Positions 3-24,083 of a stretch of DNA of 54,522 nt are shown here, piece by piece. Below the pieces are notes generated by a model. It had not been told where the DNA came from. It made no database searches and saw only the letters and a program-made list of their open reading frames with translations. This DNA comes from a virus (Duplodnaviria > Caudoviricetes), in IMG/VR virus record IMGVR_UViG_3300025000_001274, positions 1 to 54,522 of that record. One strand, 5' to 3'. Each line of letters begins with the position of its first letter. The first letter of the stretch is position 1. The translations under genes were made by a program, and so were the position numbers.

Positions 3-422
3 ATGGCAAAAGAATTAAAGTATTTTCATGGGGCAGAGCATAAGGTTATTAACTGTTATGAAAATGGAGAAGATGTAAAAATTGAAAATGTAATAAAACA
101 TTCTACTTTACATCCAAGATGCGGAACGTCTTTTATTGGTCTATTGGTATTAAAAAAATTACTGATCTTTAATGTGATATTCTTTTTTATAGTAGCTCCT
201 GTATGGGTAAAGACCTTTGCGATAATTTTCTTATTTAGTTTGACATATGAAGTATTTCGTTTAATGAATAGGAAAGATATTAAAATTTTAAGTCCAATTA
301 AAAGATTTGGATTATGGATGCAATCTTTTACTACAGCAGAACCAACAGATGAACAACTTGAGGTTGCTATAGTTTCATTTAATTTATTATTAAATAATAG
401 AAAAGGAGGTTTTAATGTTTAA
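3..422 (+). CDS. DUF1385/YqhQ-like membrane protein, C-terminal part (probably 5'-truncated by window)
   Basis: HGAEHKVINCYE, HPRCGTSF and GLWMQSFTTAEPTDEQLEVAI motifs typical of DUF1385. Confidence 0.8.
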   Translation: MAKELKYFHGAEHKVINCYENGEDVKIENVIKHSTLHPRCGTSFIGLLVLKKLLIFNVIFFFIVAPVWVKTFAIIFLFSLTYEVFRLMNRKDIKILSPIKRFGLWMQSFTTAEPTDEQLEVAIVSFNLLLNNRKGGFNV

Positions 423-540
423 AATTAAAAATTATTGGATTGCCAAGAAATATTGAAAGTTTGTACTGGTGGATGGGTATTACATTTGTAGATATTGTTA
501 TTGCCCCATCCTGTATTTTATGAAGAGGAGGAAAAATAAA

Positions 541-805
541 ATGAGATAAATCTACCAATGTGATTTCTGCTCAATGTTACTCCCAAAAGAAGAAATGGAA
601 ATTCATGAAAAAGTATGTGATTATAATATAAAAAAATAAAACTTGTTTGACTTGTAAAAATGCTAGAATGAGAGATGGCAGGTTACAATATTGTAGGGTT
701 GGAGAGCAAATGAATGTGCAACATGGGTTTATTATTAGGACTTATCCGGTAGTTGGTTGTGACAAGTGGGAATTTGGGATTCCGAATGATATGAGAGGTG
801 TTTGA
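541..805 (+). pseudogene. Disrupted small Cys-rich (Zn-finger-like) ORF
   Basis: Strong RBS GAGGAGG then ATG AGA TAA (stop at codon 3); frame continues YQCDFC..HEKVC and, after a frameshift in the A-run near 630-636, KTCLTCK..GCDKWE to TGA 803-805. Confidence 0.6.
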
Positions 806-946
806 GGTGGTTTGGTTGATTTGATGTTTAATTGATGGAAGGGGGTGATTAGAATGTAGAAATAAATATAATTAGTTAGGTATAGGACAAAATGAAATTG
901 TCTATACTAATCACAAGGGAATAAACAATTAAGGAGTGATTAGTAT

Positions 947-1348
947 ATGCAAGTAGTAAATAAAGTTCAACAGCAACAACAATTAATTAGAGGTGGAATT
1001 TATCTTGCTAGTATACCAGGAGGCGTTGGATCAGAGCAAACTATGATTAATCGTCCAGTTGTAATATTGCAAAATAATATGGGAAATAAATTTTCTCCAA
1101 CAGTTACAATATGTCCTTTGACTTCACAACAAGGGAAAAGGTGGTTACCGACCCACGTAAAACTTTTTAAAACAAAATGCCTTGCTACTCTTAGTATTGC
1201 TCTTGCAGAACAAATAACCACGATTTCAAAGGAAAGATTAACACGATTTATCGGAGTAGTTGAAAAATCTGAAATGTTTGCTATCGAGGATGCTTTACTT
1301 ATACAAATGGGGATTACGCCAAGAAATAATTATGTTTATGCAAATTAA
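947..1348 (+). CDS. mazF: MazF/PemK (EndoA/NdoA-like) endoribonuclease, no adjacent antitoxin
   Basis: RGGIY..GSEQ..RPVVILQNNMGNKFSP..PLTS..LPTHV..AEQITTISKERL; catalytic Arg/Thr positions present; RBS AAGGAGTGA. Confidence 0.9.
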   Translation: MQVVNKVQQQQQLIRGGIYLASIPGGVGSEQTMINRPVVILQNNMGNKFSPTVTICPLTSQQGKRWLPTHVKLFKTKCLATLSIALAEQITTISKERLTRFIGVVEKSEMFAIEDALLIQMGITPRNNYVYAN

Positions 1349-1380
1349 AAGGAGAGATAATTATTGACAAAAAAATAAAT

Positions 1381-2960
1381 ATGACAACAGATCAATATAA
1401 ATTGGAATTAGACGAGATTAATTTAATTAATAATACTAATATAATACTAAAGGAAGGAATAGAATATATAAACAGAAAAACAAAACTATTGCACATATGT
1501 TCTTGCGGAAAGGACTGGTTAGTTAATCCTCGTTCAGTATTATCTGGTTCAAGAAAATGTGGATTATGTTATACTTTTGCAGAATGCGGTATTGATAATT
1601 TTGGTGAGGAGTTTCTTGAAGAATATTGGGACTATAAAACAAATGACGAACTAGGAATTGATCCTTGGAAAATTAGTTATAAGTCAGATAAAAAAGTTTA
1701 TATATTTTGTAAAAAAGTAGATTATCATGGTAGTTATCCAATTTCATGTATTAATTTCACGAGTGGTCACAGGTGTATTTATTGTGGCAACAGGAAAGTT
1801 CATTCAAAAGATAGTTTTGGGCAATTCTTGATAGATTCATTTGATTTAACCACTTTAGAAACATATTGGGATTATAACAATAATATAGTTGACCCTTTTA
1901 AAATTGCAACGCACTCTGAAAAGAAAGTATTTATAAAATGTCAAATAAAAGATTATCATAGTAGTTACCCAGTTATGTGTTCACATTTTGTGGTGGGAAA
2001 TAAATGTCCGTACTGTAATGGTAAAAAGTACATATTTTAGACAGTTTAGGAACGCTACATCCTGAAACATTAAAAACGTGGTCAAACATAAATAAGAAAT
2101 CACCATACGAATATACTCCAAATAGTAACAAAGAGGTTTGGTGGAGATGCGAAAAAGGTAAACATGATGATTATCCTCGTTGTATAGGAACTTCTAAGAA
2201 ATATGGATTTCGATGTCCTGAATGTTCAAAAGAAAGTTTAGAATCCATAATGTCTACAACACTAAAACAAACTTTAAAACATGAATATCCAGATACTTTA
2301 TGGGAATTTGATGCAGGTTTTAAAACAGAGAACAATTATACTAGTAGATATGATATATATGTTATATTTTTAAATTTATTAATTGAATGCCAGAGTGTGT
2401 ATCACGATGATGATATAATGAAAGCAAGGGATAAACTAAAGAAGCAATTTGCAATTGATAATAATTATAATTATATGGAATTAGATAGTAGAGATTATAC
2501 TCCATTAGAAGCAATACAAATATTTTTCCCACACATAACGGAAATTCCAGATTACATAGAATTTGATAAAAACACATTAAAAGACTGGAATACTAAAGAT
2601 GCACAAAGATTACTAGATGAAGGGTTTACATATATAGAAGTAGCTAACGCAATAGGAGCAACATATAATGCAATTTGTCATGCTATTTCAAGAAGAATAT
2701 TAATAAAACCTGAGACCTACATTAGACAAGGAATTCCCATTGTTTGTCTAACAAAAGATAATAATTTTATAAAAATATATGATACAAGTAATGTTGCAGC
2801 TAAAGAATTAGGTAAAAGCAATGGATCAAGTATTAGTTCTTGTTTAACTAAAACTCCTGATAAAAAAGGAAAAGTTAAAGAAACAGCCTTTGGGTTCAAA
2901 TGGATGTATTTAGTAGATTATGAGAATATGATTAAAGATCAAAATAATAAACCTCCGTAG
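1381..2960 (+). pseudogene. Zinc-ribbon repeat (DUF4379-like) + DUF559/Vsr-like nuclease + NUMOD1 putative homing endonuclease, split by a 1-nt frameshift
   Basis: ORFs 1381-2040 and 2250-2960 join if one A is added to GTAAAAAGTA at 2021-2030 (GKK|VHILDSLGTLHPE..VWWRCEKGKH..CPEC, in frame with ATG 2250); YDIY..LIECQS..H nuclease motif; C-terminal TAFGFKWMY. Confidence 0.75.
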
Positions 2961-3030
2961 AATACATAATTATTAATAAATACATAGACTAAAAATAAAT
3001 TATAATAATAAAGGAGAGATAAAATAATAA

Positions 3031-3735
3031 ATGGATATAATTACATCACTATCAAAAGGAACAATAAATTTTATCAATAAACATGATTTAATAGATAAAA
3101 CCTTTACTCAAGAAGATTATATATACATAGCGAATTTAATTAAAAAATATAGACCCAAAAAAGAACCAATTAAAATAACATCAGATCATGTTAAACAATT
3201 AGCTGAAAATGGAGCAATGATATTCTATGGTGAATTGTTTAAATACTTAATTGTATTATCTATTGCTTGGTGTTTAAATATCTTGATTCCTACTTTCTTC
3301 ATAATAAATACTTTTTCAGCACTCAGAGGACTGGCCGGAGGAGTACATATGAGCACATTTAATAAGTGCTTTGCAGTGATGATTGGGTGTTTCTTATCAT
3401 TAGGTTATATAGTTAGTTCAATACATAATACACTATTTATTACAGGAATTTTTACTATAGGGGCAATATGGAGTATATACATAGCACTTAAATATGCACC
3501 TCAAGAGCGTCCAGATAAAACTGACAAGGATTGTGATAATGGAAATAAAATGAAGTATAGAACAGTTATGTTTATTATTGTGAGTTTTATAATTAGCATG
3601 ATATTAATATTGTTTACTCAAAAATACATAATTGGCATTAGTATATTTGCGGGCGTTTTACTTGAGATGATTACAATCACTCCTTGGGGAACAAAATTCT
3701 TTCAATTGATTGACGGTAAGAAGGTGTCTAAATGA
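3031..3735 (+). CDS. agrB: AgrB-family autoinducing-peptide processing membrane protease
   Basis: LRGLAGGVHMSTFNKC (conserved R-x-x-x-GG-x-H...C catalytic motif), YAP motif, multiple TM helices. Confidence 0.88.
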   Translation: MDIITSLSKGTINFINKHDLIDKTFTQEDYIYIANLIKKYRPKKEPIKITSDHVKQLAENGAMIFYGELFKYLIVLSIAWCLNILIPTFFIINTFSALRGLAGGVHMSTFNKCFAVMIGCFLSLGYIVSSIHNTLFITGIFTIGAIWSIYIALKYAPQERPDKTDKDCDNGNKMKYRTVMFIIVSFIISMILILFTQKYIIGISIFAGVLLEMITITPWGTKFFQLIDGKKVSK

Positions 3736-4370
3736 CGGAGACAGTAATTGCAACGTTCTTATTTGCATGGTTATTCAAAGGATATAAATGGTCTGAGATA
3801 TTTAAGTTGTTTAAACATTGGAGTATATACCCGATAGTATTGACTTGTTTTGCTCACATTTATTTTGTGTATTCAATAATTCATAACCAATATTGGTTTC
3901 TTGAATATACTTATTATATAAAGACTACTTCTTTCCTATTCTATTTTATACTTATTTGGAAATATAAATTGCTCGATGTCTCAATATTTAAAGGAGTAAA
4001 TATTGAAAAAAATAAACCATTGTTAATATGGGTAACATCACCTGTTGTCATAGGTGCATTATGCACAGTGATAGGTTCAAAATTAAATCAAATAGCTATG
4101 TTTTATAATAATAATAAAATGCCTGTATTTTTTTCAAGTGCTTGGACCACAGGATATGCAAAAGTAGATATATTTACCAACGCATCAAAGTATGGAGATT
4201 TTCATGTTATAGGAGATATGTATACAAAATTGATACCACTTTGTGACACATGGGATATCGGGTTCATGGTATTATCACCTGGCGATCTATTATGTAGAGG
4301 TTTTGTATTTATGACTTTATATTACTCAATAAAACAATTAAGAGAGAAATGCTGGTTACATAATATATAA
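3732..4370 (+). CDS. DUF5317-like membrane protein, translationally coupled to agrB
   Basis: GSKLNQIAMFYNNNKMPV..H..TKLIPLCD..LSPGDLL matches the DUF5317 pattern (N..N.G.MPV, H, L.D, S.GD); ATGA overlap with agrB stop. Confidence 0.7.
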   Translation: MTETVIATFLFAWLFKGYKWSEIFKLFKHWSIYPIVLTCFAHIYFVYSIIHNQYWFLEYTYYIKTTSFLFYFILIWKYKLLDVSIFKGVNIEKNKPLLIWVTSPVVIGALCTVIGSKLNQIAMFYNNNKMPVFFSSAWTTGYAKVDIFTNASKYGDFHVIGDMYTKLIPLCDTWDIGFMVLSPGDLLCRGFVFMTLYYSIKQLREKCWLHNI

Positions 4371-4377
4371 ATAATAT

Positions 4378-4406
4378 TTGACAATCTCCCCAATATAGTA
4401 TATACT
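4378..4406 (+). promoter_or_regulatory. SigA-type promoter for membrane protein + agrD
   Basis: TTGACA-N17-TATACT. Confidence 0.8.
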
Positions 4407-4439
4407 TAGTATAATAAAGAAAAAATTGGGAGGAAAAAT

Positions 4440-5231
4440 ATGTTCAATTTAATAAATAGTTTTTTGAACTGCATATGTATAACCATTCCAGAATTTAGTT
4501 TTTTAATAATTATTACTTTATTAATGATGGGCAGAAAAGAAATGTTAGATATATACAATATAAAAAACAATTTTATTTCAATAATGAAAATAATTATTCC
4601 ATCATCAATTATATTAGATATTTTAAATTTTATTAATATACTACCTGTTGTTTTAAATAAGTTATCATCATTTTGTTGCTTATATGTATTAATGGTAATT
4701 GTATTAAATTCTGAAAATCATTCATATGTTGAATACCCAAAATTAAAACAAAAGGCATTTGGATTTTTAATGTTAGGGATTTTGATTTCTATAGTTATTG
4801 ATATGATAACTTCTCCAATAATATTCAAATTGGCAGATAAATCATATGAGGAAATAAAAACGAATATATTGTTATTAATAATATGTTCGTTATCATCAAG
4901 GATAATTAATATAATTATATTATTATATATAATTATTAATAAAAACAATAGATTTCAATTTAACTTAATCAACTATATATTTAATAATAAGTTTTTTACA
5001 AGATTAACAACAAGTACAATAATTGGGTTGGTGCTGTTTGAATTATATTTTATAAAATTAATAACTATTAATAACTTGTTGAATATAATACATACAACAT
5101 ATGAACAGTTTTTTATTATTATAGGTATTACATTCTTAATACCATCATTGATAATTTCAATAGTTTATTTATGTATAAATTATTGTGTTATTATAATAAA
5201 TAGTGAGAAGCAGACTATCAGAAATGATTGA
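4440..5231 (+). CDS. Polytopic membrane protein, candidate peptide receptor (AgrC sensor-like, no kinase domain)
   Basis: About 7 hydrophobic segments, no H-box/HATPase; directly upstream of agrD; paralogous to 6464-7285. Confidence 0.65.
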   Translation: MFNLINSFLNCICITIPEFSFLIIITLLMMGRKEMLDIYNIKNNFISIMKIIIPSSIILDILNFINILPVVLNKLSSFCCLYVLMVIVLNSENHSYVEYPKLKQKAFGFLMLGILISIVIDMITSPIIFKLADKSYEEIKTNILLLIICSLSSRIINIIILLYIIINKNNRFQFNLINYIFNNKFFTRLTTSTIIGLVLFELYFIKLITINNLLNIIHTTYEQFFIIIGITFLIPSLIISIVYLCINYCVIIINSEKQTIRND

Positions 5232-5270
5232 TCTGATTTTTCAAATCCAAATAAGAAGGAGGTGAAAATA

Positions 5271-5375
5271 ATGAAAAAAGTAATTCTTTGTTTAGCAGTA
5301 GTATCGGTAATTGTGGCAGTAGTTTCTTCCGCTTTTTTATGGAATCAACCAGTAACCCCTAATTGTGTAGCTTAG
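5271..5375 (+). CDS. agrD: AgrD-like cyclic (thio)lactone autoinducer propeptide, 34 aa (not in ORF track)
   Basis: RBS AAGGAGGTGA; MKKVILCLAVVSVIVAVVSSAFLWNQPVTPNCVA*: hydrophobic leader, S-A-F-L-W core, then N-Q-P-x-x-P as in clostridial AgrD. Confidence 0.85.
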   Translation: MKKVILCLAVVSVIVAVVSSAFLWNQPVTPNCVA

Positions 5376-5395
5376 TCTATACATACCCATGATAT

Positions 5396-5426
5396 AAGGA
5401 GAGAGTATTTATTACTCTCTCCTTTT
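5396..5426 (+). terminator. Intrinsic terminator after agrD
   Basis: AAGGAGAGAGTA / TACTCTCTCCTT perfect 12-bp stem followed by T residues. Confidence 0.75.
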
Positions 5427-5454
5427 AAATTATAAAATAATTTTTATAATACTA

Positions 5455-5484
5455 TTGACATATTATTCACTGTTGTAGTATACT
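5455..5484 (+). promoter_or_regulatory. SigA-type promoter for HTH-MazF
   Basis: TTGACA-N18-TATACT. Confidence 0.65.
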
Positions 5485-5536
5485 TATATAAAGTAAGAGA
5501 TTACGAAATATTATATTTATAAATTATGAAGGGTGG

Positions 5537-6337
5537 ATGATTAATATGTTAGGATTTAGAAAGAAAAATGAAACCATCAAATCAAATGAGGTGAAAGATT
5601 TTAAGAAACTCGCAAACTTGGTCAAGATAGCCGTTGGCAGTAATACTATTTCAGAATTTGCAAATAGATGTGGTATTCCAAATTCAGCTAAAAGTATTGC
5701 TATGATTACTCAAGAAAAAATAACTACATACCCAGAAGTCGGTTTGCTTAAAAAGATTGCTTTGGGTTCTGAATTTCGTGTATCTTTTAATGATTTAAGA
5801 ATTGCATGTGGTTATGATTTAAATGATACAGGGATTGATCTTAGAAGTGTAAAAGCTATGAGGGGTTGGATTGCCTTATGTAATTACGGAAACGTTTTAG
5901 ACTCAGAACAGGGAGGTACTCGGCCATCGCTGATAATTTCCAACAATTTAGGAAATGAAAGAGGCACTATTTTAATGGCAATTCCCCTTTCATCTAGATT
6001 GGGCAAAAATAATATGCCCACTCACGTAAGGATCGGCCAAGAATCTGGATTATCTCAAGAATCGGAAATTTTAGTTGAGCAGATGCGAGTTGTGTCAAAA
6101 AGTCGGTTAATGATCGATGGTTTTATCCAACCAATTTGTGAAGTTTCTTCTGAGATAATGAGAAAGGTAGAAACCGCAATCATGATAGAAACTGGCATGG
6201 TACACACTAAAGCTAAAGAATCTACCGTAAGCAGATTTTTAGATAAGCTCAATGAATATGTAAATAAAGAAGAGGAAAGTCGTATTCGCCACCTTCAAAG
6301 TAGTAATCGTGGATTAATACTACAAACTGGGAAGTAA
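5537..6337 (+). CDS. N-terminal HTH-like domain fused to MazF/PemK domain
   Basis: N-term TISEFANRCGI..PEVGLLKKIA..DLRIACGY (XRE-like); C-term SEQGGTRPSLIISNNLGN..PLSS..MPTHV..VEQMRVVSKSRL. Confidence 0.8.
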   Translation: MINMLGFRKKNETIKSNEVKDFKKLANLVKIAVGSNTISEFANRCGIPNSAKSIAMITQEKITTYPEVGLLKKIALGSEFRVSFNDLRIACGYDLNDTGIDLRSVKAMRGWIALCNYGNVLDSEQGGTRPSLIISNNLGNERGTILMAIPLSSRLGKNNMPTHVRIGQESGLSQESEILVEQMRVVSKSRLMIDGFIQPICEVSSEIMRKVETAIMIETGMVHTKAKESTVSRFLDKLNEYVNKEEESRIRHLQSSNRGLILQTGK

Positions 6338-6358
6338 TATCATTATTATGAAAATAAA

Positions 6359-6424
6359 ATAGATGGTCATTATATCATATATTATTAACTAATCTTTATC
6401 ATCCTTATTATAATGACCATCTAT
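6359..6424. repeat. Perfect 16-bp inverted repeat with 34-nt spacer
   Basis: ATAGATGGTCATTATA (6359-6374) and TATAATGACCATCTAT (6409-6424). Confidence 0.9.
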
Positions 6425-6463
6425 ATACCAACAAATAAAATCTAAAGAAAGAAGGCCACGCCC

Positions 6464-7285
6464 ATGCAGACACTACAAACACTATCCCTACCCCATATCC
6501 TCCTAAACATAATCTTCACATCAATACCAGAAGAAGCATTCATAGCAATAATTACTCTAATCTTCCTAAAACTAAATAACCTCCTAGACATTTACATGTG
6601 GAATAAAAGTCAAAAATGGATTACTCTAGCTGTACTTCCTGTATCCATAATGATAAATATCCTAAAATACATAATAATTGTACCTCAGCAAAATATGATG
6701 ATTTCAACTATGATTATTATGATAATGCTTATGGAATACATAGTTATAAACAACAGTTACGATATAACTCCATCATTAATACTCAAAACAGTAATCTACA
6801 CAATCGCAGGATTTGTTATTGTAGGAATAGTAGAATATTCGTATTGCCCCTTAGTTGCTTCATTACTAGATAGGCCAATGGAATTTTTCAATGCTAATGT
6901 TTTCTATAATTTTCTATTAGGTCTTCCTGCCAGAGTATTATATTTATGTGTCATATCATTTGTTATAATAAGAAGGAATAGTACAGTTCATGTTGATTTG
7001 TTTAACTCCATAGTTAAAAACAAGTTCTTTATATATGGTTTTATTTTAATGATATTAGTTAGAATTTCTTTAGTTTCTTATGTTGTAAAATTAATAGAAA
7101 GAAACAATATTTTAATTTACATACAATTTGTAGAGAAATTATATATTATCATTGGGATAATTTGTATTCCAATAATTTTCATAACTTTATTGCTGATGTT
7201 TGTTAACAATCTATTGTGTAAAGAACAGATTAAATTGCAAGTATATGAGAATATGATTAATTCAAATGGAATTAATGGTTATTAA
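6464..7285 (+). CDS. Second polytopic membrane protein, paralog of 4440-5231
   Basis: Shared motifs LN..F.SIPEEAF..IITL vs LNCICITIPEFSF..IITL and VDLFNSIVKNKFF vs FNLINYIFNNKFF; no kinase domain. Confidence 0.65.
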   Translation: MQTLQTLSLPHILLNIIFTSIPEEAFIAIITLIFLKLNNLLDIYMWNKSQKWITLAVLPVSIMINILKYIIIVPQQNMMISTMIIMIMLMEYIVINNSYDITPSLILKTVIYTIAGFVIVGIVEYSYCPLVASLLDRPMEFFNANVFYNFLLGLPARVLYLCVISFVIIRRNSTVHVDLFNSIVKNKFFIYGFILMILVRISLVSYVVKLIERNNILIYIQFVEKLYIIIGIICIPIIFITLLLMFVNNLLCKEQIKLQVYENMINSNGINGY

Positions 7286-7503
7286 TATAATGGTAATTTA
7301 ATATTTTAGACAAATAATTAGACAATAATCAAAAACAGACGAACAATTTAGAATAAAATGTCGAACATATGTACTATTTTTGTTATGATAGTTGTTGAAT
7401 AGTGGTTTTCTCAGTGATACAATATTATAAAGGAGGTATTAAGAGAATTAAAATACAATTTGTATTAATTTCCATAAAATAAAATTAAAGGAGAAGTGAA
7501 TAT

Positions 7504-7902
7504 ATGGAAAATTGTAAAAAAGAAGAAAACGAACAATCAATTTGGGTTATTAAAGATCAAAATGGTAATTTTTCTAATAGATCAAGTATAGGTAAATCTA
7601 GTAATAAAAAATGGCAATACATAGCATTTAAAACATTTTCTCAAGAAGCAACGGGGTATACGACCAAAGAATATGCTGAGAAAGCATTGGATTTCTTAAA
7701 CGAAAAGAAAGCAATTGCCGGATTTGATTTTTCCTTTCATATAGAATGTCTTAATTTAGAAAAAATAATTGATGAACATGTGGTATTCCAAGGTGATAAT
7801 TTGGTTAGACATGAGAAAGAATTATTATTAAATCATTGTAGAACGGTAAAAACTCGAATGTGTCCATGCTCCCAAAACCTTGTTTCTTCTGGTGTGATCT
7901 AA
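7504..7902 (+). CDS. Hypothetical protein
   Basis: ORF with RBS AAGGAG. Confidence 0.6.
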   Translation: MENCKKEENEQSIWVIKDQNGNFSNRSSIGKSSNKKWQYIAFKTFSQEATGYTTKEYAEKALDFLNEKKAIAGFDFSFHIECLNLEKIIDEHVVFQGDNLVRHEKELLLNHCRTVKTRMCPCSQNLVSSGVI

Positions 7903-7923
7903 TAGTTTAACATTTGAAGCATG

Positions 7924-7961
7924 ACAAACTGCTCTGAGTTTATGCCCTGAGCAGTTTGTTT
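7924..7961 (+). terminator. Hairpin, probable terminator
   Basis: ACAAACTGCTC / GAGCAGTTTGT 11-bp stem followed by TT. Confidence 0.6.
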
Positions 7962-7983
7962 ATAAAAATAGGAGGAAGAGTGA

Positions 7984-9777
7984 ATGCTAATTACTAAAAC
8001 AGTTAATATAAAATGGTGTTATAAAACTAAAAAATGGTATGAAAAACAAGGATATATTTTTACAAAATGGAATGACGAATTTGAAGTAAAAGTTGAGGAT
8101 TTGATTTGTGGAGCTAATGTATATGTTGATGTAACCTGCGATTGTGAAAGTTGTACGACCCCTATTATAAAACCTGTAAGATGGTGTGATTATTTAAAAT
8201 GTGTAAAAGAAGATGGTAGATATTATTGTCGTAAATGTGCAATAGGTTTATTTGCTAATGAAAATGCTAGAAAAACTAAGTTGAAAAACGGACTATCATT
8301 TTACCAATGGTGTTATGATAATTTGTCTAAAGAAGATGCAGATAAAATATTAGCAAGATGGGATTATGAGAAAAACAGACTAAGTCCTAAAGATGTTAGT
8401 TCTAGTTCGGTTGGTGCAAATAGAAAAGGATATTGGTTTAAATGTTTGGAACATCAAAATCATGAGTCAGAACAAAGAAGTATTAGCAGTTTTACAAGTG
8501 ATAAAAATAGAAATCTTAAATGTAGTCAATGTCATGTGTTAGCAATGACTCATCCTGAACTTGCAAAATATCTAGTAAATAAAGAAGACATTTATAAATA
8601 TTCTTTTGGTTCAAATGAAAAAATCCCTATGAAATGTCCTGAGTGTGGTCATGAAAAACCTATGAAAATCCCTCGTTTATTAAGGCAAGGTTTTGGTTGT
8701 GTAAAATGTTCAGATGGATTAAGCTATCCAAACAAGTTTATGTTTAATATATTAGAACAAATACAAGAATTAAATATAATTGAGAATTTTCAAACAGAGA
8801 AAACATTTGATTGGTTAATATATGAGTTTAAAGGAAAATTACGAAAAGGTAGATTGGATTTTTATTATAAAGTAAATGGTATGGCATATGGTATTGAAAC
8901 AGATGGAGGCTTTCATACGAAAGATAATGGAATGAGTGGTCAAACAAAGGAAGAAAGTAAATATATTGATGATGAAAAAGATAGGTTATGTAAAGAGCAT
9001 GATATAGAAGTGATTAGAATTGATTGTACTGAATCAAACTTAGAGTGGATAAAAAATAACGTGATGAAATCTGAATTACCTAAAATATTAAATTTTGTTG
9101 AAGGTAATATAGATTGGTTGAAATGTCAAGAATTTGCTTGTAATAGTTTAGTTAAAGTTGCATGTAATTTATGGAATAACGGTATAGATAACACATTAGA
9201 GATAGCAAATGAATTAAAAGTAGGTAGGAGTACTGCTACAAAGTACTTGAATAAAGGTTCATTACTAGGGTGGTGTAGTTATGACCCAAAAGAAGAAACA
9301 GAAAAGAATCATGGTAGTGAAAAACATTGCAAGCAAGTTATTTGTTTAAATACAAAAGAAATATTTTCCTCTTTAAAAGAAGCATGTATTAAATTTAATA
9401 TTAGGTCTTCAAATATGACCTATTGTTGTAGCAATGAATATAAAGCGAAAACAGCAGGAAAAGACCCTAATACAGGAGACGATTTATTATGGATGTATTA
9501 TGATGAATATATTGTAAAAAACAAAATTTCGGGTTGGTTTGAAGATTATTTAAATAACTATGGTTATAGCCATAAAGTAGTGTGTTTAACAACTGGTGAG
9601 ATATTTAATTCTCAAACAGAGGGTGCATTAAAATACAATTTAAAGAGTGGTAATAATATAAGAGCATGTTGTAATATTGAAGGAAAATCAGCAGGTAAAC
9701 ATCCAATCACAGGAGAAAAACTTATGTGGGTAACCTATAAGAATTACAACAAGCAAAATAACATCAATGTAAATTAA
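7984..9777 (+). CDS. Zinc-ribbon (DUF4379-like) + DUF559/Vsr-like nuclease + NUMOD1 repeats, putative homing endonuclease
   Basis: Multiple CxxC; RLDFY..IETDGGFH..DDEKDRLC..VIRID; repeated VICLNTKEIF / VVCLTTGEIF..AGKHPITGEKLMW. Confidence 0.75.
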   Translation: MLITKTVNIKWCYKTKKWYEKQGYIFTKWNDEFEVKVEDLICGANVYVDVTCDCESCTTPIIKPVRWCDYLKCVKEDGRYYCRKCAIGLFANENARKTKLKNGLSFYQWCYDNLSKEDADKILARWDYEKNRLSPKDVSSSSVGANRKGYWFKCLEHQNHESEQRSISSFTSDKNRNLKCSQCHVLAMTHPELAKYLVNKEDIYKYSFGSNEKIPMKCPECGHEKPMKIPRLLRQGFGCVKCSDGLSYPNKFMFNILEQIQELNIIENFQTEKTFDWLIYEFKGKLRKGRLDFYYKVNGMAYGIETDGGFHTKDNGMSGQTKEESKYIDDEKDRLCKEHDIEVIRIDCTESNLEWIKNNVMKSELPKILNFVEGNIDWLKCQEFACNSLVKVACNLWNNGIDNTLEIANELKVGRSTATKYLNKGSLLGWCSYDPKEETEKNHGSEKHCKQVICLNTKEIFSSLKEACIKFNIRSSNMTYCCSNEYKAKTAGKDPNTGDDLLWMYYDEYIVKNKISGWFEDYLNNYGYSHKVVCLTTGEIFNSQTEGALKYNLKSGNNIRACCNIEGKSAGKHPITGEKLMWVTYKNYNKQNNINVN

Positions 9778-9814
9778 ATACTAATTATAAATTTATTTTT
9801 ATTTACATATCTGC

Positions 9815-9843
9815 TTGCATAAAGAATATAAATGTTATATAAT
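9815..9843 (+). promoter_or_regulatory. SigA-type promoter of DGQHR/repressor operon
   Basis: TTGCAT-N17-TATAAT. Confidence 0.7.
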
Positions 9844-9881
9844 ACAATTATATTACTTGAATGTGAAGGAGCGATGTTTAA

Positions 9882-11246
9882 ATGCTTGAAGCAAAGTCAG
9901 CAGAACTTGTCAAAAATCTAAATAAAATTATAAGGAAATATGCTGGTAATGACAAAATTAGAAAGGTGATTATTGATCAATTTACCGAAAGGAACATGAA
10001 GGCATCTTTGGCTGTAAATATCTTAAACGAAAGATTTTTATTATCTACTCTTGATATTGATCAAGCAAAGGATTTGATTTTGCTATTCGTTTTTTCAACA
10101 AGTATGTATAAAGCTATACTAGAAAAAGAAACGAATAGCAACGCTTCTAATGAAGAACTTGCTGAAATATTAGATTTAGATCCTAAAGACTATTTTACTG
10201 AAATTGAAATGGAAAACCTAAAGGATTATAAGGCAGAAAGAAAATCTAAGGGAAAAGAAGACGAACCAATTATTCTTCCTAATATGATTCCGATTGCGCC
10301 TAATTCTTGGGTGGGGCCTCTATCATCTCAACAGTTTGCTGATTTAGATGCTGGAAATGAATTTATTTACAACTTTAAAACTCAACGTGATCCAGTGTAT
10401 GATGTTTACGGAACAAAAAAAATTAATTTAAGCAAAACAAAAGCGAAAGAAATTTCAGAAGGAATATTATCAGGAGATCAATTCCCAGATGCAATAGTCG
10501 TAAATGTGCTTAAAGATGGAACCGATGAAATAAGATATGAAAAAAATGGAGACTTAGTGATTTTATCAGGGACAAAAAATATTGTAGATGGTATGCATCG
10601 CAAAGTGGGAAACTCAATCGCTATCAACAAGAATCCTAATCTTTCCTTTAATTTCATATTAATTGTTACTAATTACAGTGAGGCAAAAGCACAAAAACAA
10701 ATGACTCAAATTAACAAGCAAAAACCTATGAAAATAGAACATATTAAGAATTTAGATAATTCTACAATGGGTAATGTTATTGTGGATGTCATTTCAGATA
10801 TAAAAACATCCGAATTTGCAGAAATGATTAGGGATTCAGATGCAGAATTAGAATATGGTGGTTTTGCTAAAAAAAATACCTTATCTACGAGTATTGAAGA
10901 GTGTTATAAGTCCGAATTAACCAATAAATTGCAAGTAAAACAAATTGCATCTCATGTTGCGAATGTTATAGATTATGTGATAGCACTGCGAGTAGACGAT
11001 TTTATAAAACATCCCGAAGAAACCAAAAAGACTAGTTATATTAATCATAAAAATATGTTTATTGGATATGTTGCACTATCTGCAAAAGTGTATAAAGATC
11101 CCAACTGGGAGATTAAAGTTGAGGAAACTCTAAATAAAATTGATTTTAATATTAGTAATCCATTCTGGAAAGATAATGATATTCTTGACCATGATGTTAA
11201 AAAATCATCTAGGAATAGTTTTTATAAATTATTCGGAAAATCATAA
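9882..11246 (+). CDS. DGQHR/DndB-ParB-like domain protein (SPbeta YopQ-like by size and position)
   Basis: YNFKTQR and IVDGMHR (DGQHR variant) motifs; directly upstream of recombinase-fold gene. Confidence 0.65.
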   Translation: MLEAKSAELVKNLNKIIRKYAGNDKIRKVIIDQFTERNMKASLAVNILNERFLLSTLDIDQAKDLILLFVFSTSMYKAILEKETNSNASNEELAEILDLDPKDYFTEIEMENLKDYKAERKSKGKEDEPIILPNMIPIAPNSWVGPLSSQQFADLDAGNEFIYNFKTQRDPVYDVYGTKKINLSKTKAKEISEGILSGDQFPDAIVVNVLKDGTDEIRYEKNGDLVILSGTKNIVDGMHRKVGNSIAINKNPNLSFNFILIVTNYSEAKAQKQMTQINKQKPMKIEHIKNLDNSTMGNVIVDVISDIKTSEFAEMIRDSDAELEYGGFAKKNTLSTSIEECYKSELTNKLQVKQIASHVANVIDYVIALRVDDFIKHPEETKKTSYINHKNMFIGYVALSAKVYKDPNWEIKVEETLNKIDFNISNPFWKDNDILDHDVKKSSRNSFYKLFGKS

Positions 11247-11269
11247 ATTTTAAAAGGAGTTGGTGCTTT

Positions 11270-12295
11270 GTGTCTACTGAAAAAACCATAGTACTAGATG
11301 AAAATGAAGTTAAATTTGAAATTGATGCAAATTATAAAGAAGAGTTTTTAAATGATCTTAAACCAAGTACTCGATCATTTTATTCTTATATATTAAAATT
11401 GGCTGATGAATATGAAAAAGAAATCGGGAAAAGCATTTTCAACTTTAATATTGAGGATAGAGATGAGTTTTTAGTTGTAAAATACAAAAACAAAAATATT
11501 TACTCATTTCAAACCACATTATCTCCACTAAAAAAATATGTAGATTGGTGTATATCTAAAAACTTTGTTGTACATTTTCAAAACATTTTTGCTGCGATTT
11601 TAACCAAGGATTATAATGAGTATATCAATGTTCAAGCAAAAGAAAATTCTTATATACCTTTATCAGAATGTAGAGAATTTCAATCTAAATTAGTAAATTA
11701 TCAGGACAGAGCAATTATTGAATTGCCAAATCTAGGGGTTAGAGGTCGTACTGAAAAAGGTAATACTCTTGAGGAACTAGTTAATCTAAAAGTTAAAGAT
11801 ATCGACTGGAAAGAAAAGAGACTATATCTCACTAAAAACAATGGTGAATTTAGATGGATGGATGTAGATGATTATACTTTAGATTTACTCAAAAAGGTTA
11901 TTGATCAAGATTTTTATATTGCTAATAATGGATTGAAGACAAAACCTAATGATGATGGAGTATACGAAAGTACGGATAGGGGAAGAATAATCAATAAAAC
12001 TGAATATGTTTTTAGAACTCCAGGAAAGAACAAAAATGGAAAAGTTGATTATCAATTCTTTGCTAGTAGAATACAACGAATTCAAAAATGGTTAGGTAAT
12101 CCTTATATTAGTATCAGTAATCTTTATTTTTCTGCAATTATTGAATATGCCAAAGAAGAAAAGAAAAAGAAAGGCGAACTAACTAAGGATGACTATATCA
12201 AAATTAATGAGAGGTTTGAATTTGGAGAAAATGGGGAAAAATATCTCTTTAAGACTAAAGAACTAATTGCAACTTATTTGGATGATGAGAGGTAA
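11270..12295 (+). CDS. Tyrosine-recombinase-fold protein with degenerate active site, candidate master repressor (YopR/MrpR-like)
   Basis: SAM-like N-term; DRAIIEL..GVRG..LEELVNLKVKDIDW box I intact; H-x-x-R box II replaced by ISISNLYFS; no LGH motif. Confidence 0.7.
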   Translation: MSTEKTIVLDENEVKFEIDANYKEEFLNDLKPSTRSFYSYILKLADEYEKEIGKSIFNFNIEDRDEFLVVKYKNKNIYSFQTTLSPLKKYVDWCISKNFVVHFQNIFAAILTKDYNEYINVQAKENSYIPLSECREFQSKLVNYQDRAIIELPNLGVRGRTEKGNTLEELVNLKVKDIDWKEKRLYLTKNNGEFRWMDVDDYTLDLLKKVIDQDFYIANNGLKTKPNDDGVYESTDRGRIINKTEYVFRTPGKNKNGKVDYQFFASRIQRIQKWLGNPYISISNLYFSAIIEYAKEEKKKKGELTKDDYIKINERFEFGENGEKYLFKTKELIATYLDDER

Positions 12296-12300
12296 ATGTT

Positions 12301-12702
12301 ATGCAAAATACGTTATCAGAAATGTGGAATAAGTATAGCTTACTTCTCTCCTTTAAAAATGAAATGAATAAACTAGGTTATGCTTCTAAAGATTTGTACT
12401 GTATTTATGTTCAACTATATCTTTTGATGGAGTTAATCGAGATAGAAAGTGAAAATGGTTTAGAAATTTTATTGAAAAAAACTTATTTTCGCTTACTCAA
12501 GAAGATAAATAAGGGAATTGAGTATTTACCTGATATTATTGAAACACCAGAAGAATGGGTATTAAACAAGATCGAAAATGATATAGATGCTTGGACTGAT
12601 TCAGATGTTCTTATTTTTACTACAAAGTCAAATGTTGTAGCATTTAGTAAATTATCTAGAAAAAGTACAGGTAGTCAGTATATTGATGGTAAATGGCAAT
12701 AA
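12301..12702 (+). CDS. Hypothetical protein
   Basis: ORF with RBS GAGAGGT, in operon. Confidence 0.6.
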   Translation: MQNTLSEMWNKYSLLLSFKNEMNKLGYASKDLYCIYVQLYLLMELIEIESENGLEILLKKTYFRLLKKINKGIEYLPDIIETPEEWVLNKIENDIDAWTDSDVLIFTTKSNVVAFSKLSRKSTGSQYIDGKWQ

Positions 12703-12710
12703 GAAGGGAA

Positions 12711-13121
12711 ATGATATTGATGAATGTAGGAGAAAAGATTTTATCGTTTAAAGAAAGGTTAAATCATAAATATTTTGCAGATTTTGCTAGAGCAGCAAAC
12801 ATTCCTCCTGCGTGGTTAAATGAAATTAAAGACAAAGAAGAAATCAAACAAATAAGCGATATGTCATATCTTATAAATCTTTGCTCATATTTAGGTATGA
12901 CAATTGATGATTTTTTAAGAAATGATGATGTTATAAAAGAAGAAATTTCTGAAGTTATTGATGTTAATTCAGAAGATATTAGTGTTTTACTCAATAACAT
13001 GATAGTATTATTACGAAAGGAAGGAACAAAAATGGATAATGTAATTATGAATGATAAAAGTAAAGAAATTTGCATAGATAGTCTTGCGGTTGTAAAAACA
13101 CTAGTTAAACAACATTTATAA
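12711..13121 (+). CDS. XRE-family HTH transcriptional regulator
   Basis: VGEKILSFKERL..ADFARAANIPPAWLNEI..LINLCSYLGMTIDDFL. Confidence 0.65.
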   Translation: MILMNVGEKILSFKERLNHKYFADFARAANIPPAWLNEIKDKEEIKQISDMSYLINLCSYLGMTIDDFLRNDDVIKEEISEVIDVNSEDISVLLNNMIVLLRKEGTKMDNVIMNDKSKEICIDSLAVVKTLVKQHL

Positions 13122-13126
13122 AGGAT

Positions 13127-13996
13127 GTGAATATAATCATGGTGTTTAAAGGAAGATCAACTGATACATTTGAAATGGATGATATTGAAGTTTATCAATT
13201 AGTAAAAGAAGGTTCTTTAAGATCATATCCAAGTGGATTTTGGGACGGAATTACAGCTTCCAAGACAGCAGAAAAAATCACAAAATATGTTTTCAAGGAT
13301 GTTTTAAATTGGAGTATTGATGACATTAAGGTAAAAGTCACTAGAGAAATATTTGAGGAATATAAATTAGTTGGAATGCTTAAAAATATATATGATTCCA
13401 GCATGTATATTTGTTTGGGAGAAGTCTATCCAGAATTAAAGGAATGGGCAAGCAAACAATATCAAACCAATGAACATGCTGATTTTATCCATAGAAGGTA
13501 CTCAGATGACGAATTGATTTATATTCTTCAAGAAAAATCAAAGGAATTAAATAGAATCCCAAAAGGGGTTGATATGAAAACGCCAAGTAGTGCTATTTAT
13601 AGCAGTAGATTCGGTTCATGGGAAAAATCTTTAATGAAAGCAGGATTAATTGAAGACATTTATAAAGATGTTGATTTTAGAAAGAACTCCAAAGAATCGG
13701 TTATATCTCATTTAAAAGAATTATTTGCAGAAAAGGAAAGAGTATTAGATAAAGATGAAATATTCGCTATTTATCCTGAAGGATTAATTAAAGAATACTT
13801 TGGGACTTATAATAAACTTGAAAAAGTTATTATTGCAGAATATACTAAAAAAGAACTTACTAAAATATTGAAAAAGAAGCAAGAAAAATTAGGTAGAGTT
13901 CCGAGCAATAAAGATATGAAGTTTCCAATGGCTATTGTGTTCATAGACAAATTTGGAAGTTGGCAGGAGGTGATTGACAAATTGGAGAAACCTTAA
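13127..13996 (+). CDS. Protein with DUF4046-like and homing-endonuclease-associated repeats
   Basis: YPSGFW N-term; repeats YSDDELI..LNRIP..RFGSW and YTKKEL..LGRVP..KFGSW. Confidence 0.6.
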   Translation: MNIIMVFKGRSTDTFEMDDIEVYQLVKEGSLRSYPSGFWDGITASKTAEKITKYVFKDVLNWSIDDIKVKVTREIFEEYKLVGMLKNIYDSSMYICLGEVYPELKEWASKQYQTNEHADFIHRRYSDDELIYILQEKSKELNRIPKGVDMKTPSSAIYSSRFGSWEKSLMKAGLIEDIYKDVDFRKNSKESVISHLKELFAEKERVLDKDEIFAIYPEGLIKEYFGTYNKLEKVIIAEYTKKELTKILKKKQEKLGRVPSNKDMKFPMAIVFIDKFGSWQEVIDKLEKP

Positions 13997-22372: not shown

Positions 22373-22389
22373 GAAAGGATTGATAAAAA

Positions 22390-22848
22390 TTGATTAAAAT
22401 AATTGATGGAGATATTTTACAAGCACAAGAAAATATAATAGTACATCAAGTGAACTGTTTATCCGTAATGGGTGGAGGAATTGCAAAACAGATCAGAGAA
22501 AAATATCCTAAAGTATTTAAAGATTATCAAAAATATCTTTCCAATAGTGGATTCCCAATTCAAGCTTTAGGAGAGTGTCAATTTGTAGAAGTAGGTGAGA
22601 ATAAATATGTGGCAAATTTATTCGGTCAATATAAATACGGCAGAGACAAACAACAAACAGATTATAAAGCGTTGGAAGAAGCCTTATTTTCACTTAAAGT
22701 AAATGCAAAAGATCATAATTTATCTGTGGCTATTCCAGTAAATCTAGGCTGTGGTCTTGCAGGTGGATCTTGGGATATAGTTTATAAAATGATTGAAGAA
22801 GTTTTTCACGATTATGATGTTACTTTATATAGATGGGAGGTGAAATAA
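22390..22848 (+). CDS. Macrodomain (ADP-ribose-processing, TARG1/DarG-like) protein
   Basis: IDGDIL..IVHQVNC..MGGGIAKQIREKYP..ANLFGQ..LGCGLAGGSWDIV. Confidence 0.9.
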   Translation: MIKIIDGDILQAQENIIVHQVNCLSVMGGGIAKQIREKYPKVFKDYQKYLSNSGFPIQALGECQFVEVGENKYVANLFGQYKYGRDKQQTDYKALEEALFSLKVNAKDHNLSVAIPVNLGCGLAGGSWDIVYKMIEEVFHDYDVTLYRWEVK

Positions 22849-24083
22849 TGGAAACAAAATATAAATATCTATATCTTGTTAAAGTTGAACCGAATGCAAA
22901 TAATAATAAATTTTACAAACTCGTGCAAACAGATGACAACAATTTCACAGCCGAATATGGTCGTATTGGAGCAGGTGGTTTTCAAACCGCATATTATGAT
23001 ATGAATCAATGGAATAAGAAAGTAAAAGAAAAGGAGAAAAAAGGATATTGTGACAATACCAGATTAGTTGCAGAGGTTGTTGTTAAAGAAAAGAAGAACA
23101 AAGAATACTTGGATATTCCAAATCAAGTAATTGCATCTATTGTATCAAGACTGCAATCTATGGCTCGACAAGCAATTGCAGATAACTATATAATTTCTTC
23201 AAATAAAGTTACTCAAGTAATGATTGATGAAGCACAGTTAACTTTAAATAATTTGATGAATGCAGACACAATTGAATTGTTTAATAAAGTTTTGGTGGAA
23301 TTATTTAAAATTATTCCACGAAAAATGAAAAAAGTTAAAGATAATCTTGCCAAGGATACTAAGGATTTTGGAGATATTATTCAGAAGGAACAAGATTTGC
23401 TTGATGTAATGAGAGGCCAAGTAGTTGCAGAATCTGTAGTGAAAGACGAAGAGGACACTTCTGAAGAACCAATCAATAATCAAACAATATTAGATGTAAT
23501 GGGTTTGCGATTTGAAGAAATTACTCAAGAAGAAAAGGAATTAATAAAGAAAAATCTTGGGTCAATCAGTGATAAGTTCTATCAGGCATGGAAAGTTGTA
23601 AACGTTAAAACTCAAGAAAAATATGATAAATTTGTTAAGGAAAATGATATTAAAGATACTAGATTACTATGGCACGGATCGAGATCAGAAAATTTCTGGA
23701 ATATTATTAATACTGGTTTAGTATTACGTCCAAATGCAATAGTAACAGGTAAATTATACGGATTTGGCATATACTTTGCCCCTCGTGCGGTCAAAAGTTT
23801 AGGTTATACTTCTTTGTCTGGTTCGTATTGGTCAAAAGGAAACTCAACATCAGCGTTTATGGCATTAAATAATGTGGCGTATGGGAAACCTTATGATGTA
23901 TATGATTTTGATAGTAGATATTATAATTTAAATCATGAGAATCTTCAAAAGATGTGTCTAGGAGCACATTCATTACATGCTCACGCAGGAGCAAATTTAG
24001 GTCATACTAACTTAAAGAATGATGAAATAATCGTGTACAAGGAAGATCAATGTACAATTAAATATTTAGTAGAATTGAGGTAA
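22848..24083 (+). CDS. PARP-like ADP-ribosyltransferase (WGR + regulatory + catalytic domains)
   Basis: NNNKFY..YGRIG (WGR); LWHGSR, GKLYGFGIYFA, KSLGY, NDEIIVY with H-Y-E triad. Confidence 0.9.
   Translation: METKYKYLYLVKVEPNANNNKFYKLVQTDDNNFTAEYGRIGAGGFQTAYYDMNQWNKKVKEKEKKGYCDNTRLVAEVVVKEKKNKEYLDIPNQVIASIVSRLQSMARQAIADNYIISSNKVTQVMIDEAQLTLNNLMNADTIELFNKVLVELFKIIPRKMKKVKDNLAKDTKDFGDIIQKEQDLLDVMRGQVVAESVVKDEEDTSEEPINNQTILDVMGLRFEEITQEEKELIKKNLGSISDKFYQAWKVVNVKTQEKYDKFVKENDIKDTRLLWHGSRSENFWNIINTGLVLRPNAIVTGKLYGFGIYFAPRAVKSLGYTSLSGSYWSKGNSTSAFMALNNVAYGKPYDVYDFDSRYYNLNHENLQKMCLGAHSLHAHAGANLGHTNLKNDEIIVYKEDQCTIKYLVELR

Follow-up and report, generated by a model that had tools for sequence, protein, structure and literature searches.

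A candidate kinase-less agr-type peptide module beside the repressor pair of SPbeta-like phages

The virus record IMGVR_UViG_3300025000_001274 (Caudoviricetes; 54,522 nucleotides, analysed over its whole length and called the window below) carries between positions 947 and 12,295 a cassette in which genes for an AgrB-type peptidase/cyclase and a small AgrD-like precursor lie among membrane protein genes and two MazF genes, just upstream of a YopQ/YopR-type repressor pair. An initial annotation of this DNA had read the cassette as a candidate agr-type lysis/lysogeny switch. Gene identities were assigned from the list of open reading frames (ORFs) and from Pfam, NCBIfam and PHROGs, and all the genes named in that annotation were found in the places given there, on the + strand like every gene of the cassette. 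The principal features are the following (E, expect value; HTH, helix-turn-helix).

947..1348, + strand: mazF1, a stand-alone MazF/PemK endoribonuclease gene and the first gene of the cassette (PemK_toxin, E 3.3e-24; phrog_1936)
3031..3735, + strand: agrB, AgrD membrane peptidase/cyclase (PF04647, E 6.6e-24)
3732..4370, + strand: DUF5317 membrane protein gene (PF17248, E 1.7e-10)
4378..4406, + strand: promoter-like site TTGACA-17-TATACT before memA-agrD (11/12 matches)
4440..5231, + strand: memA, a seven-helix membrane protein with an N-terminal IPE motif, of no family
5271..5375 (from GTG 5262 in the ORF lister), + strand: agrD-like precursor of 34 amino acids (TIGR04223, E 0.01, below cut-off)
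5396..5427, + strand: terminator-like hairpin and T-run directly 3' of agrD, read from the sequence (no call by a simple scanner)
5455..5484, + strand: promoter-like site TTGACA-18-TATACT before HTH-mazF (11/12 matches)
5537..6337, + strand: HTH-mazF, with an N-terminal HTH-like domain, a MazF domain and a 45-residue C-terminal tail (PemK, E 1.2e-22 at residues 109-216)
6464..7285, + strand: memB, a paralogue of MemA (28% identity, E 3e-16)
9882..11246, + strand: DndB/DGQHR-like gene, the YopQ counterpart (PF14072, E 5e-12; phrog_5732, E 3e-50; DGMHR motif in the translation)
11270..12295, + strand: MrpR/YopR-like recombinase-fold repressor gene (MrpR_N_CB, E 1.8e-13; phrog_5830, E 1.7e-48)

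Further contigs with the cassette were gathered by scans with a MemA profile, an HTH-MazF alignment and an MrpR alignment, their genes being placed by local tblastn. The cassette was found to recur in 21 further phage or metagenome contigs, several of them 139-227 kilobases (kb) long, and to occur in two gene orders. In the window and most other loci (type 1) the order is mazF1, an optional zinc-ribbon gene, agrB, DUF5317, memA, agrD, HTH-mazF and an optional memB; in L016, L018, L030, L048 and L050 (type 2) it is mazF1, an optional zinc-ribbon gene, DUF5317, mem, agrD, HTH-mazF, agrB and an optional memB. The displaced AgrB of type 2 is confirmed by Pfam in L016, L018 and L030 (PF04647, E 1e-32 to 5e-36) and was placed by tblastn only in L048 and L050. 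AgrB is present in every locus, and DUF5317, mem, agrD and HTH-mazF remain contiguous under both orders. Upstream of the cassette, mazF1 is found in all 16 loci that extend that far; downstream, DndB and MrpR are found in all 13 that do (L007 stops within DndB), and memB is present in 10 of the 17 loci covering its place. The co-occurrence that the initial annotation had proposed to look for, of AgrB, DUF5317, an IPE-type membrane protein and HTH-PemK next to YopQ/YopR genes, is seen in every one of the 13 loci with both repressor genes. We firmly regard the module as a conserved, pherotype-diverse agr-type peptide production unit of an SPbeta-like phage family, one that is tied, equally firmly, to the HTH-mazF gene and the repressor region across a gene-order rearrangement. 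In L008 (12012-14720) memB is followed by one more mem gene and by another HTH-mazF, a divergent copy at 38% identity; the mem/HTH-mazF pair seems, from this arrangement, to duplicate as a unit.

Identification of AgrB and AgrD, already made in the initial annotation, is borne out by the PF04647 match together with an AgrD pattern in 20/20 loci. The AgrB translation contains the motif GG-x-H-x6-C, in the window and in other loci, of which the His and Cys are presumably the catalytic residues. The agrD-like ORF of the window probably starts at ATG 5271, which has an AAGGAGG ribosome-binding site before it, and encodes a hydrophobic leader, a Ser-headed five-residue ring and an xQPxxP tail; taken alone it scores 16 bits against TIGR04223, for which the cut-off is 19. 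An AgrD-like ORF of 34-55 amino acids lies between mem and HTH-mazF, directly upstream of the latter, in all 20 loci covering the interval, and its leader and its tail, [N/H/Y]-Q-[P/S]-x-x-P, are conserved in each. The ring would be headed by the residue five before the equivalent of the cleavage site, with Ser at this position in 15 loci and Cys in the other 5; the four residues after it vary so that 19 distinct rings occur among the 20 loci. AgrD ORFs beside AgrB on Clostridium chromosomes have the same layout, with a Cys head and the tail Y-Q-P-[E/V]-E-P. Interchange of Ser and Cys at the ring position, with variability focused on the four ring residues, is the strongest sequence argument for a lactone or thiolactone made by AgrB, and the identity of AgrD is far firmer from these comparative data than from the single-sequence profile score.

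Directly upstream of agrD stands memA. Neither MemA nor MemB matched a family in Pfam, NCBIfam, PHROGs or PADLOC. The MemA family is small (32 clusters at 46-100% identity, all of 258-273 amino acids); a profile search of 1.84 billion proteins gave 164 representatives, nearly all of 240-330 amino acids, and no kinase or other known domain was seen in the ten of these that were scanned. The profile found zero relatives among GTDB species representatives, and the MemA sequence had no match in the PDB at E <= 10. The structural model (mean predicted local distance difference test, pLDDT, 78) has seven long helices; Foldseek returned nothing for it at E <= 0.001, and the top matches in a VIA search were generic helical bundles, the best (DUF507; Z 8.1, root-mean-square deviation 4.0 over 141 residues) lying within the noise for helical models. 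A language-model search with MemA ranked second (0.92) a 240-residue cluster automatically named 'sensory transduction protein kinase', which is a lead only.

The relationship of MemA to the ring was examined in eleven type-1 loci, or 55 pairs. MemA is at most 69% identical in 54 of the pairs; in the sole pair with the same ring, L013/L014, MemA is 93% identical and DUF5317 only 78%. The reverse is seen in L002/L009, in which the ring differs by one residue: DUF5317 is 98%, AgrB 87% and HTH-MazF 87% identical, with MemA at 58%, and DNA identity, 96-99% in DUF5317, is down to 53-60% within memA before climbing back to about 90% at agrD. Groups of close alleles, sharing about 77% identity or more, comprise 14 pairs for AgrB and 7 for DUF5317. 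A maximum-likelihood tree of 30 Mem proteins places the agrD-adjacent copies mostly on long terminal branches (0.18-1.05) in both major clades, the exception being the same-ring MemA proteins of L013 and L014 (0.06 and 0.02). The contrast between the same-ring pair, with its 93% identity in MemA, and the other 54 pairs at 69% or less, together with the promoter and terminator common to memA and agrD, makes MemA the probable ring-specific partner of the peptide, as far as sequence comparison can indicate, and we infer that it is the receptor.

MemB behaves differently. Its copies sit mostly on short terminal branches (0.02-0.24; the second copy of L008, 0.69), and it has no relation to the ring; of the two paralogues only MemA, beside agrD, follows the peptide. 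MemB alleles, including that of the window (6464-7285), sort into a few discrete types that are common to very different loci; those of L003 (11999-12799, type 1) and L050 (7571-8392, type 2), for example, are near-identical (terminal branches 0.09 and 0.06). MemB may detect a signal that is distinct from the peptide made by the phage itself.

The third membrane protein, DUF5317, is best considered with its chromosomal counterparts. An operon of DUF5317, a membrane protein of 154-160 amino acids with an IPE motif, AgrB and AgrD is found on Clostridium chromosomes in all four loci with enough sequence (L019, L021, L022, L023), and DUF5317 is fused to major facilitator superfamily (MFS) transporters in two Atlas clusters. 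As an ordinary member of chromosomal clostridial agr operons it is unlikely to be a receptor, and from this membership and the MFS fusions we read it as a putative accessory of maturation or export. The proposal of the initial annotation that the membrane proteins are receptors is accordingly narrowed to MemA, since MemB does not follow the peptide and DUF5317 is an improbable candidate. The DUF5317 model (pLDDT 70.6) had no Foldseek match and a best VIA Z of 6.5, and the name 'DUF5317' was not found in the literature searched. The idea that DUF5317 is a GxGD-type intramembrane protease was dropped, as only an S-x-G-D motif lay behind it. In the same chromosomal loci a protein of 563-569 amino acids, with a PilS-like domain of six transmembrane helices (6TM) and GGDEF and HD-GYP domains, is encoded directly after agrD (L019, 7001-10582; also L021, L022 and L023); it is a candidate membrane sensor that could link the agr peptide to cyclic di-GMP.

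Signals for transcription agree with a pairing of memA and agrD. The number of promoter-like sites in 400-13200 does not exceed the expectation from shuffled sequence; the two best on the + strand directly precede memA and HTH-mazF. The TTGACA before memA is invariant in 9/9 aligned loci, that before HTH-mazF in 11/11, and the stem of the G+C-rich hairpin that, with its T-run, comes right after agrD is likewise invariant in 11/11. A conserved promoter before memA and a hairpin after agrD imply that memA-agrD forms one transcription unit, in the manner of a receptor-pheromone pair, and HTH-mazF, with memB where present, would be the next unit. A repeat search for operators common to both promoters gave AT-rich noise only. 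In the HTH-mazF leader (5376-5536), a stretch of about 30 bases, lying after the -10 box and before the ribosome-binding site, is conserved in most of the 11 loci; it could be an operator or an RNA element.

In known agr systems a histidine kinase and response regulator would be expected to complete such a unit, and neither was found. The window and three relatives, G002 (178 kb, rated 100% complete), G003 (92%) and G001 (85%), contain no HATPase_c_5 domain (the AgrC histidine kinase) and no LytTR domain (AgrA), in line with what the initial annotation had reported for the window. It had also allowed for an AgrA/AgrC pair elsewhere in the element; none lies in these three relatives. The generic HATPase_c (PF02518) and Response_reg (PF00072) families, searched in relatives only, were absent from G001-G004. 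Controls for the kinase searches matched in 9 and 14 of 14 genomes, and control genomes gave matches in the regulator searches too. The module thus firmly lacks both kinase and regulator. A phi3Ts AimR query had no match in G001-G003, in a search run without a positive control, nor in L048 and L050, and no TPR family turned up among the window ORFs scanned.

The gene that follows agrD in the phage loci offers a candidate output. The MazF domain of HTH-MazF aligns to the Bacillus subtilis and Staphylococcus aureus MazF structures (4mdx, 4of1) with E about 4e-14, and among 12 sequences Arg129 is invariant and Ser152, at the Thr position, near-invariant; we take these to be the positions of the MazF catalytic residues. 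Its N-terminal 100 residues resemble an XRE-type HTH by eye, with no Pfam HTH match. No antitoxin family was found in the ORFs flanking either mazF, so that neither has a recognisable MazE-type neighbour, and the 525 bases upstream of mazF1 hold only a 52-residue ORF of no family. Most loci with about 60% identity in AgrB share only 32-40% in mazF1, with 65-70% reached only in L008 and L048; the opening gene of the cassette thus diverges fast in its own right. A predicted complex of MemA with HTH-MazF scored 0.38, the best of three controls scoring 0.00. Of 80 solved complexes 58 attain the mark used for such scores, as do 2 of 110 mismatched pairs, and scores of 0.60 or less that attain it come from only 7 of the 80 solved complexes and from both mismatches. 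The prediction runs, made with alignments built for this analysis, agree in at least 95% of contacts, with a partner pLDDT of at least 74. This modelling lends weak support to an association and is a hint rather than evidence of binding.

Downstream, the repressor pair relates the locus to SPbeta. The MrpR-like protein matched 52 phage records by tblastn, all of them large Bacillales phages including phi3T and SPbeta hybrids, and on this basis the element is taken to be a relative of SPbeta-type phages; identity to phi3T YopR is 25.6% over 90% of the query. The DndB-like/MrpR-like order is the same as in phi3Ts and Geobacillus virus E3, and the DndB-like gene of the window holds the place of the 448-residue gene before yopR in phi3Ts. 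In phi3Ts, the YopP-like, DndB-like and MrpR-like genes are preceded, at a distance of about 2.3 kb on the same strand, by aimR-aimP-aimX. The premises that the initial annotation had taken from the literature are sound: arbitrium lies upstream of yopM-R, as in the phi3Ts layout; MrpR/YopR (SroF) is described as the SPbeta repressor; and arbitrium of phi3T is reported to act through MazEF, by modulating host MazF (PMC10769878).

Taken together, these findings lead us to prefer, tentatively and at a little less than an even chance, the reading of the cassette as a kinase-independent agr-type peptide signalling module that is carried by the phage and complete in itself. Such a module would involve cyclisation and secretion of the peptide, reception by MemA and a coupling of MemA to HTH-MazF. 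AgrB would cut and cyclise the 34-residue AgrD to yield a five-residue lactone ring (a thiolactone in the Cys variants), with DUF5317 aiding maturation or export; MemA, co-transcribed with agrD, would be the ring-specific partner and most likely the receptor, and would hand the signal by contact to the neighbouring HTH-MazF, which might then target phage or host RNA, promoters, or both. The likely output would be a lysis/lysogeny or induction decision, because the module always lies just upstream of the YopQ/YopR-type genes, in the place that arbitrium holds in SPbeta; it is position alone that suggests such control. A more specific version seems doubtful, namely that this is a private, pherotype-coded channel in which a cyclic lactone makes MemA hold or release HTH-MazF and so sets lysis versus lysogeny, with MemB hearing a second, shared signal from phages or host.

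Several observations weigh against the kinase-less signalling module. HTH-mazF has its own promoter and a terminator separates it from agrD, so that coupling leans on adjacency and a weak complex score. There is one same-ring pair, and the association of MemA with the ring consequently rests on L013/L014 and the reverse cases; median pairwise identity is similar for MemA (56%), AgrB (59%) and DUF5317 (63%), and ring identity correlates with MemA identity at a Spearman coefficient of only 0.14, almost all pairs being equally distant. No excess of variability was seen in the predicted outer half of MemA (mean entropy 1.23 versus 1.24, p 0.97). The ratio of nonsynonymous to synonymous substitution rates (dN/dS) in MemA is 0.10-0.33, below 1 everywhere, with high dS, which points to old alleles shuffled by recombination and not to recent positive selection. 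The chromosomal membrane protein of about 155 amino acids shares its N-terminal IPE motif with MemA, and MemA, if it were a longer relative of that protein, might be a maturation or export factor; a profile comparison of MemA with these bacterial proteins (hhalign) gave a probability of 5% and E 0.008. Finally, with respect to a temperate lifestyle, a large serine recombinase is absent from the three relatives; a clear tyrosine recombinase is present in two of them, and the third has a below-cut-off match only.

The main rival, which we consider unlikely, follows from the chromosomal operons, whose gene content keeps it in play. The cassette would be a rearranged copy of a clostridial agr operon devoted to production, with MemA as a maturation or export factor and with host sensors, whether VirS-like or AgrC-like kinases or the 6TM-GGDEF-HD-GYP protein, reading the peptide; the phage would in this way manipulate or join host quorum sensing, and the MazF genes, as a toxin or defence pair, would lie next to the module without being related to it. 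The presence of DUF5317, an IPE-motif protein, AgrB and AgrD together in 4/4 chromosomal loci fits such an origin, as do the DUF5317-MFS fusions. Published precedents in its favour are the co-transcription of Clostridium perfringens agrBD with two hypothetical genes (PMC2706048) and the occurrence of host-derived agr genes in phage phiCDHM1 (PMC3901668). A host receptor, however, leaves unexplained why the MemA allele changes with the ring while AgrB and DUF5317 stay 87-98% identical, and it offers no reason for the linkage of HTH-mazF to agrD, kept through the rearrangement in 20/20 loci. MemA, moreover, with 258-282 residues and seven helices, is not demonstrably homologous to the 155-residue protein.

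A peptide-gated toxin serving kin discrimination, superinfection exclusion or abortive infection is improbable. Lysogens would secrete a pherotype-specific peptide, MemA would sense self versus non-self, and the MazF proteins would arrest cells or degrade competitor RNA, the phage's own lysis/lysogeny choice not being set. Two MazF genes with the catalytic-position Arg and Ser/Thr conserved and no recognisable antitoxin would suit that role, and so would the marked divergence of mazF1; the occurrence of 19 pherotypes among 20 loci, with MemA alleles that are old and recombine, fits balancing selection, as at kin-recognition loci. Yet PADLOC defence models matched none of the 10 proteins compared, and the fixed place beside the repressor pair (13/13) is typical of decision modules, whereas morons tend to move. 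The proposal is also compatible with the kinase-less signalling module, as MazF can do both, as in phi3T. A bacteriocin-like product, with the small ORF as a membrane-active peptide and MemA as its immunity or self-protection protein, is very improbable: a co-transcribed small peptide and polytopic membrane protein of matched variability are a typical bacteriocin-immunity pair, and memA-agrD has its own promoter and terminator, but the peptide has the full AgrD layout, is always accompanied by AgrB, and five-residue AgrB products are not known to be bacteriocins.

The remaining ORFs of the cassette region were omitted from the otherwise accurate gene list of the initial annotation.

1381..2040 and 2250..2960, + strand: treble-clef zinc-ribbon ORF and NUMOD1/HNH-like (homing-endonuclease-like) ORF (DUF4379, E 9.4e-13; phrog_559/4538)
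7504..7902, + strand: orf132, a small gene of no family between the cassette and the repressor pair
7984..9777, + strand: zinc-ribbon ORF of 597 amino acids (DUF4379, E 5.2e-8)

The first two, split in the window, form a single continuous ORF of 533-534 amino acids in L002 and L003, and the interval 1381-2960 is a variable filler between mazF1 and agrB, elsewhere missing or swapped for a Znf597-like gene. The 597-residue ORF, whose counterpart lies between mazF1 and agrB in L006, L029, L048 and L050 and is missing from other loci, is probably a selfish or homing-type insert. Homologues of orf132 occupy the same place in most loci.

The virus record (54.5 kb) is estimated by CheckV to be 33% complete. 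Its G+C content, about 28% across the entire window, and the bacterial homologues of DUF5317 indicate that the host is probably a Clostridium-like member of the Bacillota. Groundwater and soil metagenomes (11 runs, 6 studies) contain DNA near-identical to positions 3000-7300, the possible source sample being excluded. Replication-type genes for PolIII alpha, a DnaB-like helicase, AAA_24 and an SNF2 helicase make the SPbeta-like replication module of the initial annotation acceptable in a loose sense. A DUF1385 gene occupies the left edge of the window (3-422), and in several phage contigs such genes, of which L013 has two (5122-6363), adjoin the cassette upstream; since DUF1385 precedes the cassette within several long phage contigs, the gene at the edge does not mark a host junction, and this normally bacterial family is here, by its sequence context, phage-borne. 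Within 19952-24083 an ORF of 806 amino acids joins a Hint/intein and a LAGLIDADG endonuclease to a DNA-ligase OB domain, making it an intein-bearing ligase-like gene, and a nearby ORF of 416 amino acids has WGR and PARP catalytic domains. An IS605 OrfB/TnpB-type gene (42844-44010; OrfB_IS605, E 6e-22) lies inside the phage replication region, and in Geobacillus virus E3 several genes of this type surround the YopQ/YopR pair. A transfer RNA scan and an Rfam gathering scan of the window gave zero matches.

The known peptides of phage lysis/lysogeny have so far been arbitrium and related RRNPP signals, which are linear and imported and have cytoplasmic receptors. If the kinase-less signalling module is real, it would be the first candidate for reading of an agr peptide without a histidine kinase, and the arbitrium slot would appear, in clostridial relatives of SPbeta, as a general socket for communication modules. 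If true, the private MemA channel would go further, as a third phage communication system after arbitrium/RRNPP and eavesdropping on host autoinducers, and as a new, phosphorelay-free form of agr signal transduction. The 19 natural peptide/MemA pairs provide a ready specificity panel. DUF5317 and the small IPE-motif protein are unstudied, conserved members of clostridial agr loci, and bear on maturation and export of the C. perfringens-type peptide.

Among the titles and abstracts listed for agr and phages, none describes this module, and no phage agr locus other than that of phiCDHM1 was found in print; a 2025 review does make a statement about agr homologues in 'SPbeta-like phages', for which the references cited there are unrelated. 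With arbitrium of SPbeta and phi3T the module shares a peptide unit that precedes the DndB-like and MrpR-like genes by a few kb on the same strand, many pherotypes and, as proposed here, an output linked to MazF. Arbitrium, however, employs a linear hexapeptide, Opp import and a cytoplasmic TPR receptor, whereas the peptide here would be processed by AgrB to a cyclic form and presumably sensed at the membrane; and the MazF of arbitrium is host-encoded, that of the present module phage-encoded.

Among bacterial systems, the staphylococcal agr groups are distinguished by a hypervariable region covering AgrB, AgrD and the sensor part of AgrC. They resemble the phage loci in that divergence peaks locally between conserved flanks, the ring and its polytopic membrane partner varying in step, but in the phages AgrB lies outside the hotspot and the variable partner has no kinase domain. 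In C. perfringens-type agr the sensor, VirS, is encoded elsewhere. There, too, DUF5317, an IPE-motif membrane protein, AgrB and AgrD form one unit on the chromosome, and according to PMC2706048 agrBD is co-transcribed with two upstream hypothetical genes, CPE1563 and CPE1562, in a four-gene operon that resembles the order DUF5317, 155-residue protein, AgrB, AgrD, the two genes being matched by layout alone. The phage version differs in gene order, in a ring head that is mostly Ser, in a larger, seven-helix membrane protein (258-282 against about 155 amino acids), and in having an HTH-MazF gene after agrD where the bacteria have the 6TM-GGDEF-HD-GYP gene.

The nearest phage precedent is phiCDHM1 of Clostridioides difficile, which according to PMC3901668 carries agrB, agrD and agrC, without an AgrA in the phage. 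Phage-borne AgrB and AgrD of clostridial type, in a phage without AgrA, are thus common to both. phiCDHM1 has an AgrC histidine kinase, for which the present module has no equivalent in the window or the near-complete relatives; in its turn the present module adds DUF5317, MemA/MemB and the HTH-MazF fusion, and adjoins a repressor pair of YopQ/YopR type, the phage that carries it measuring about 150-180 kb.

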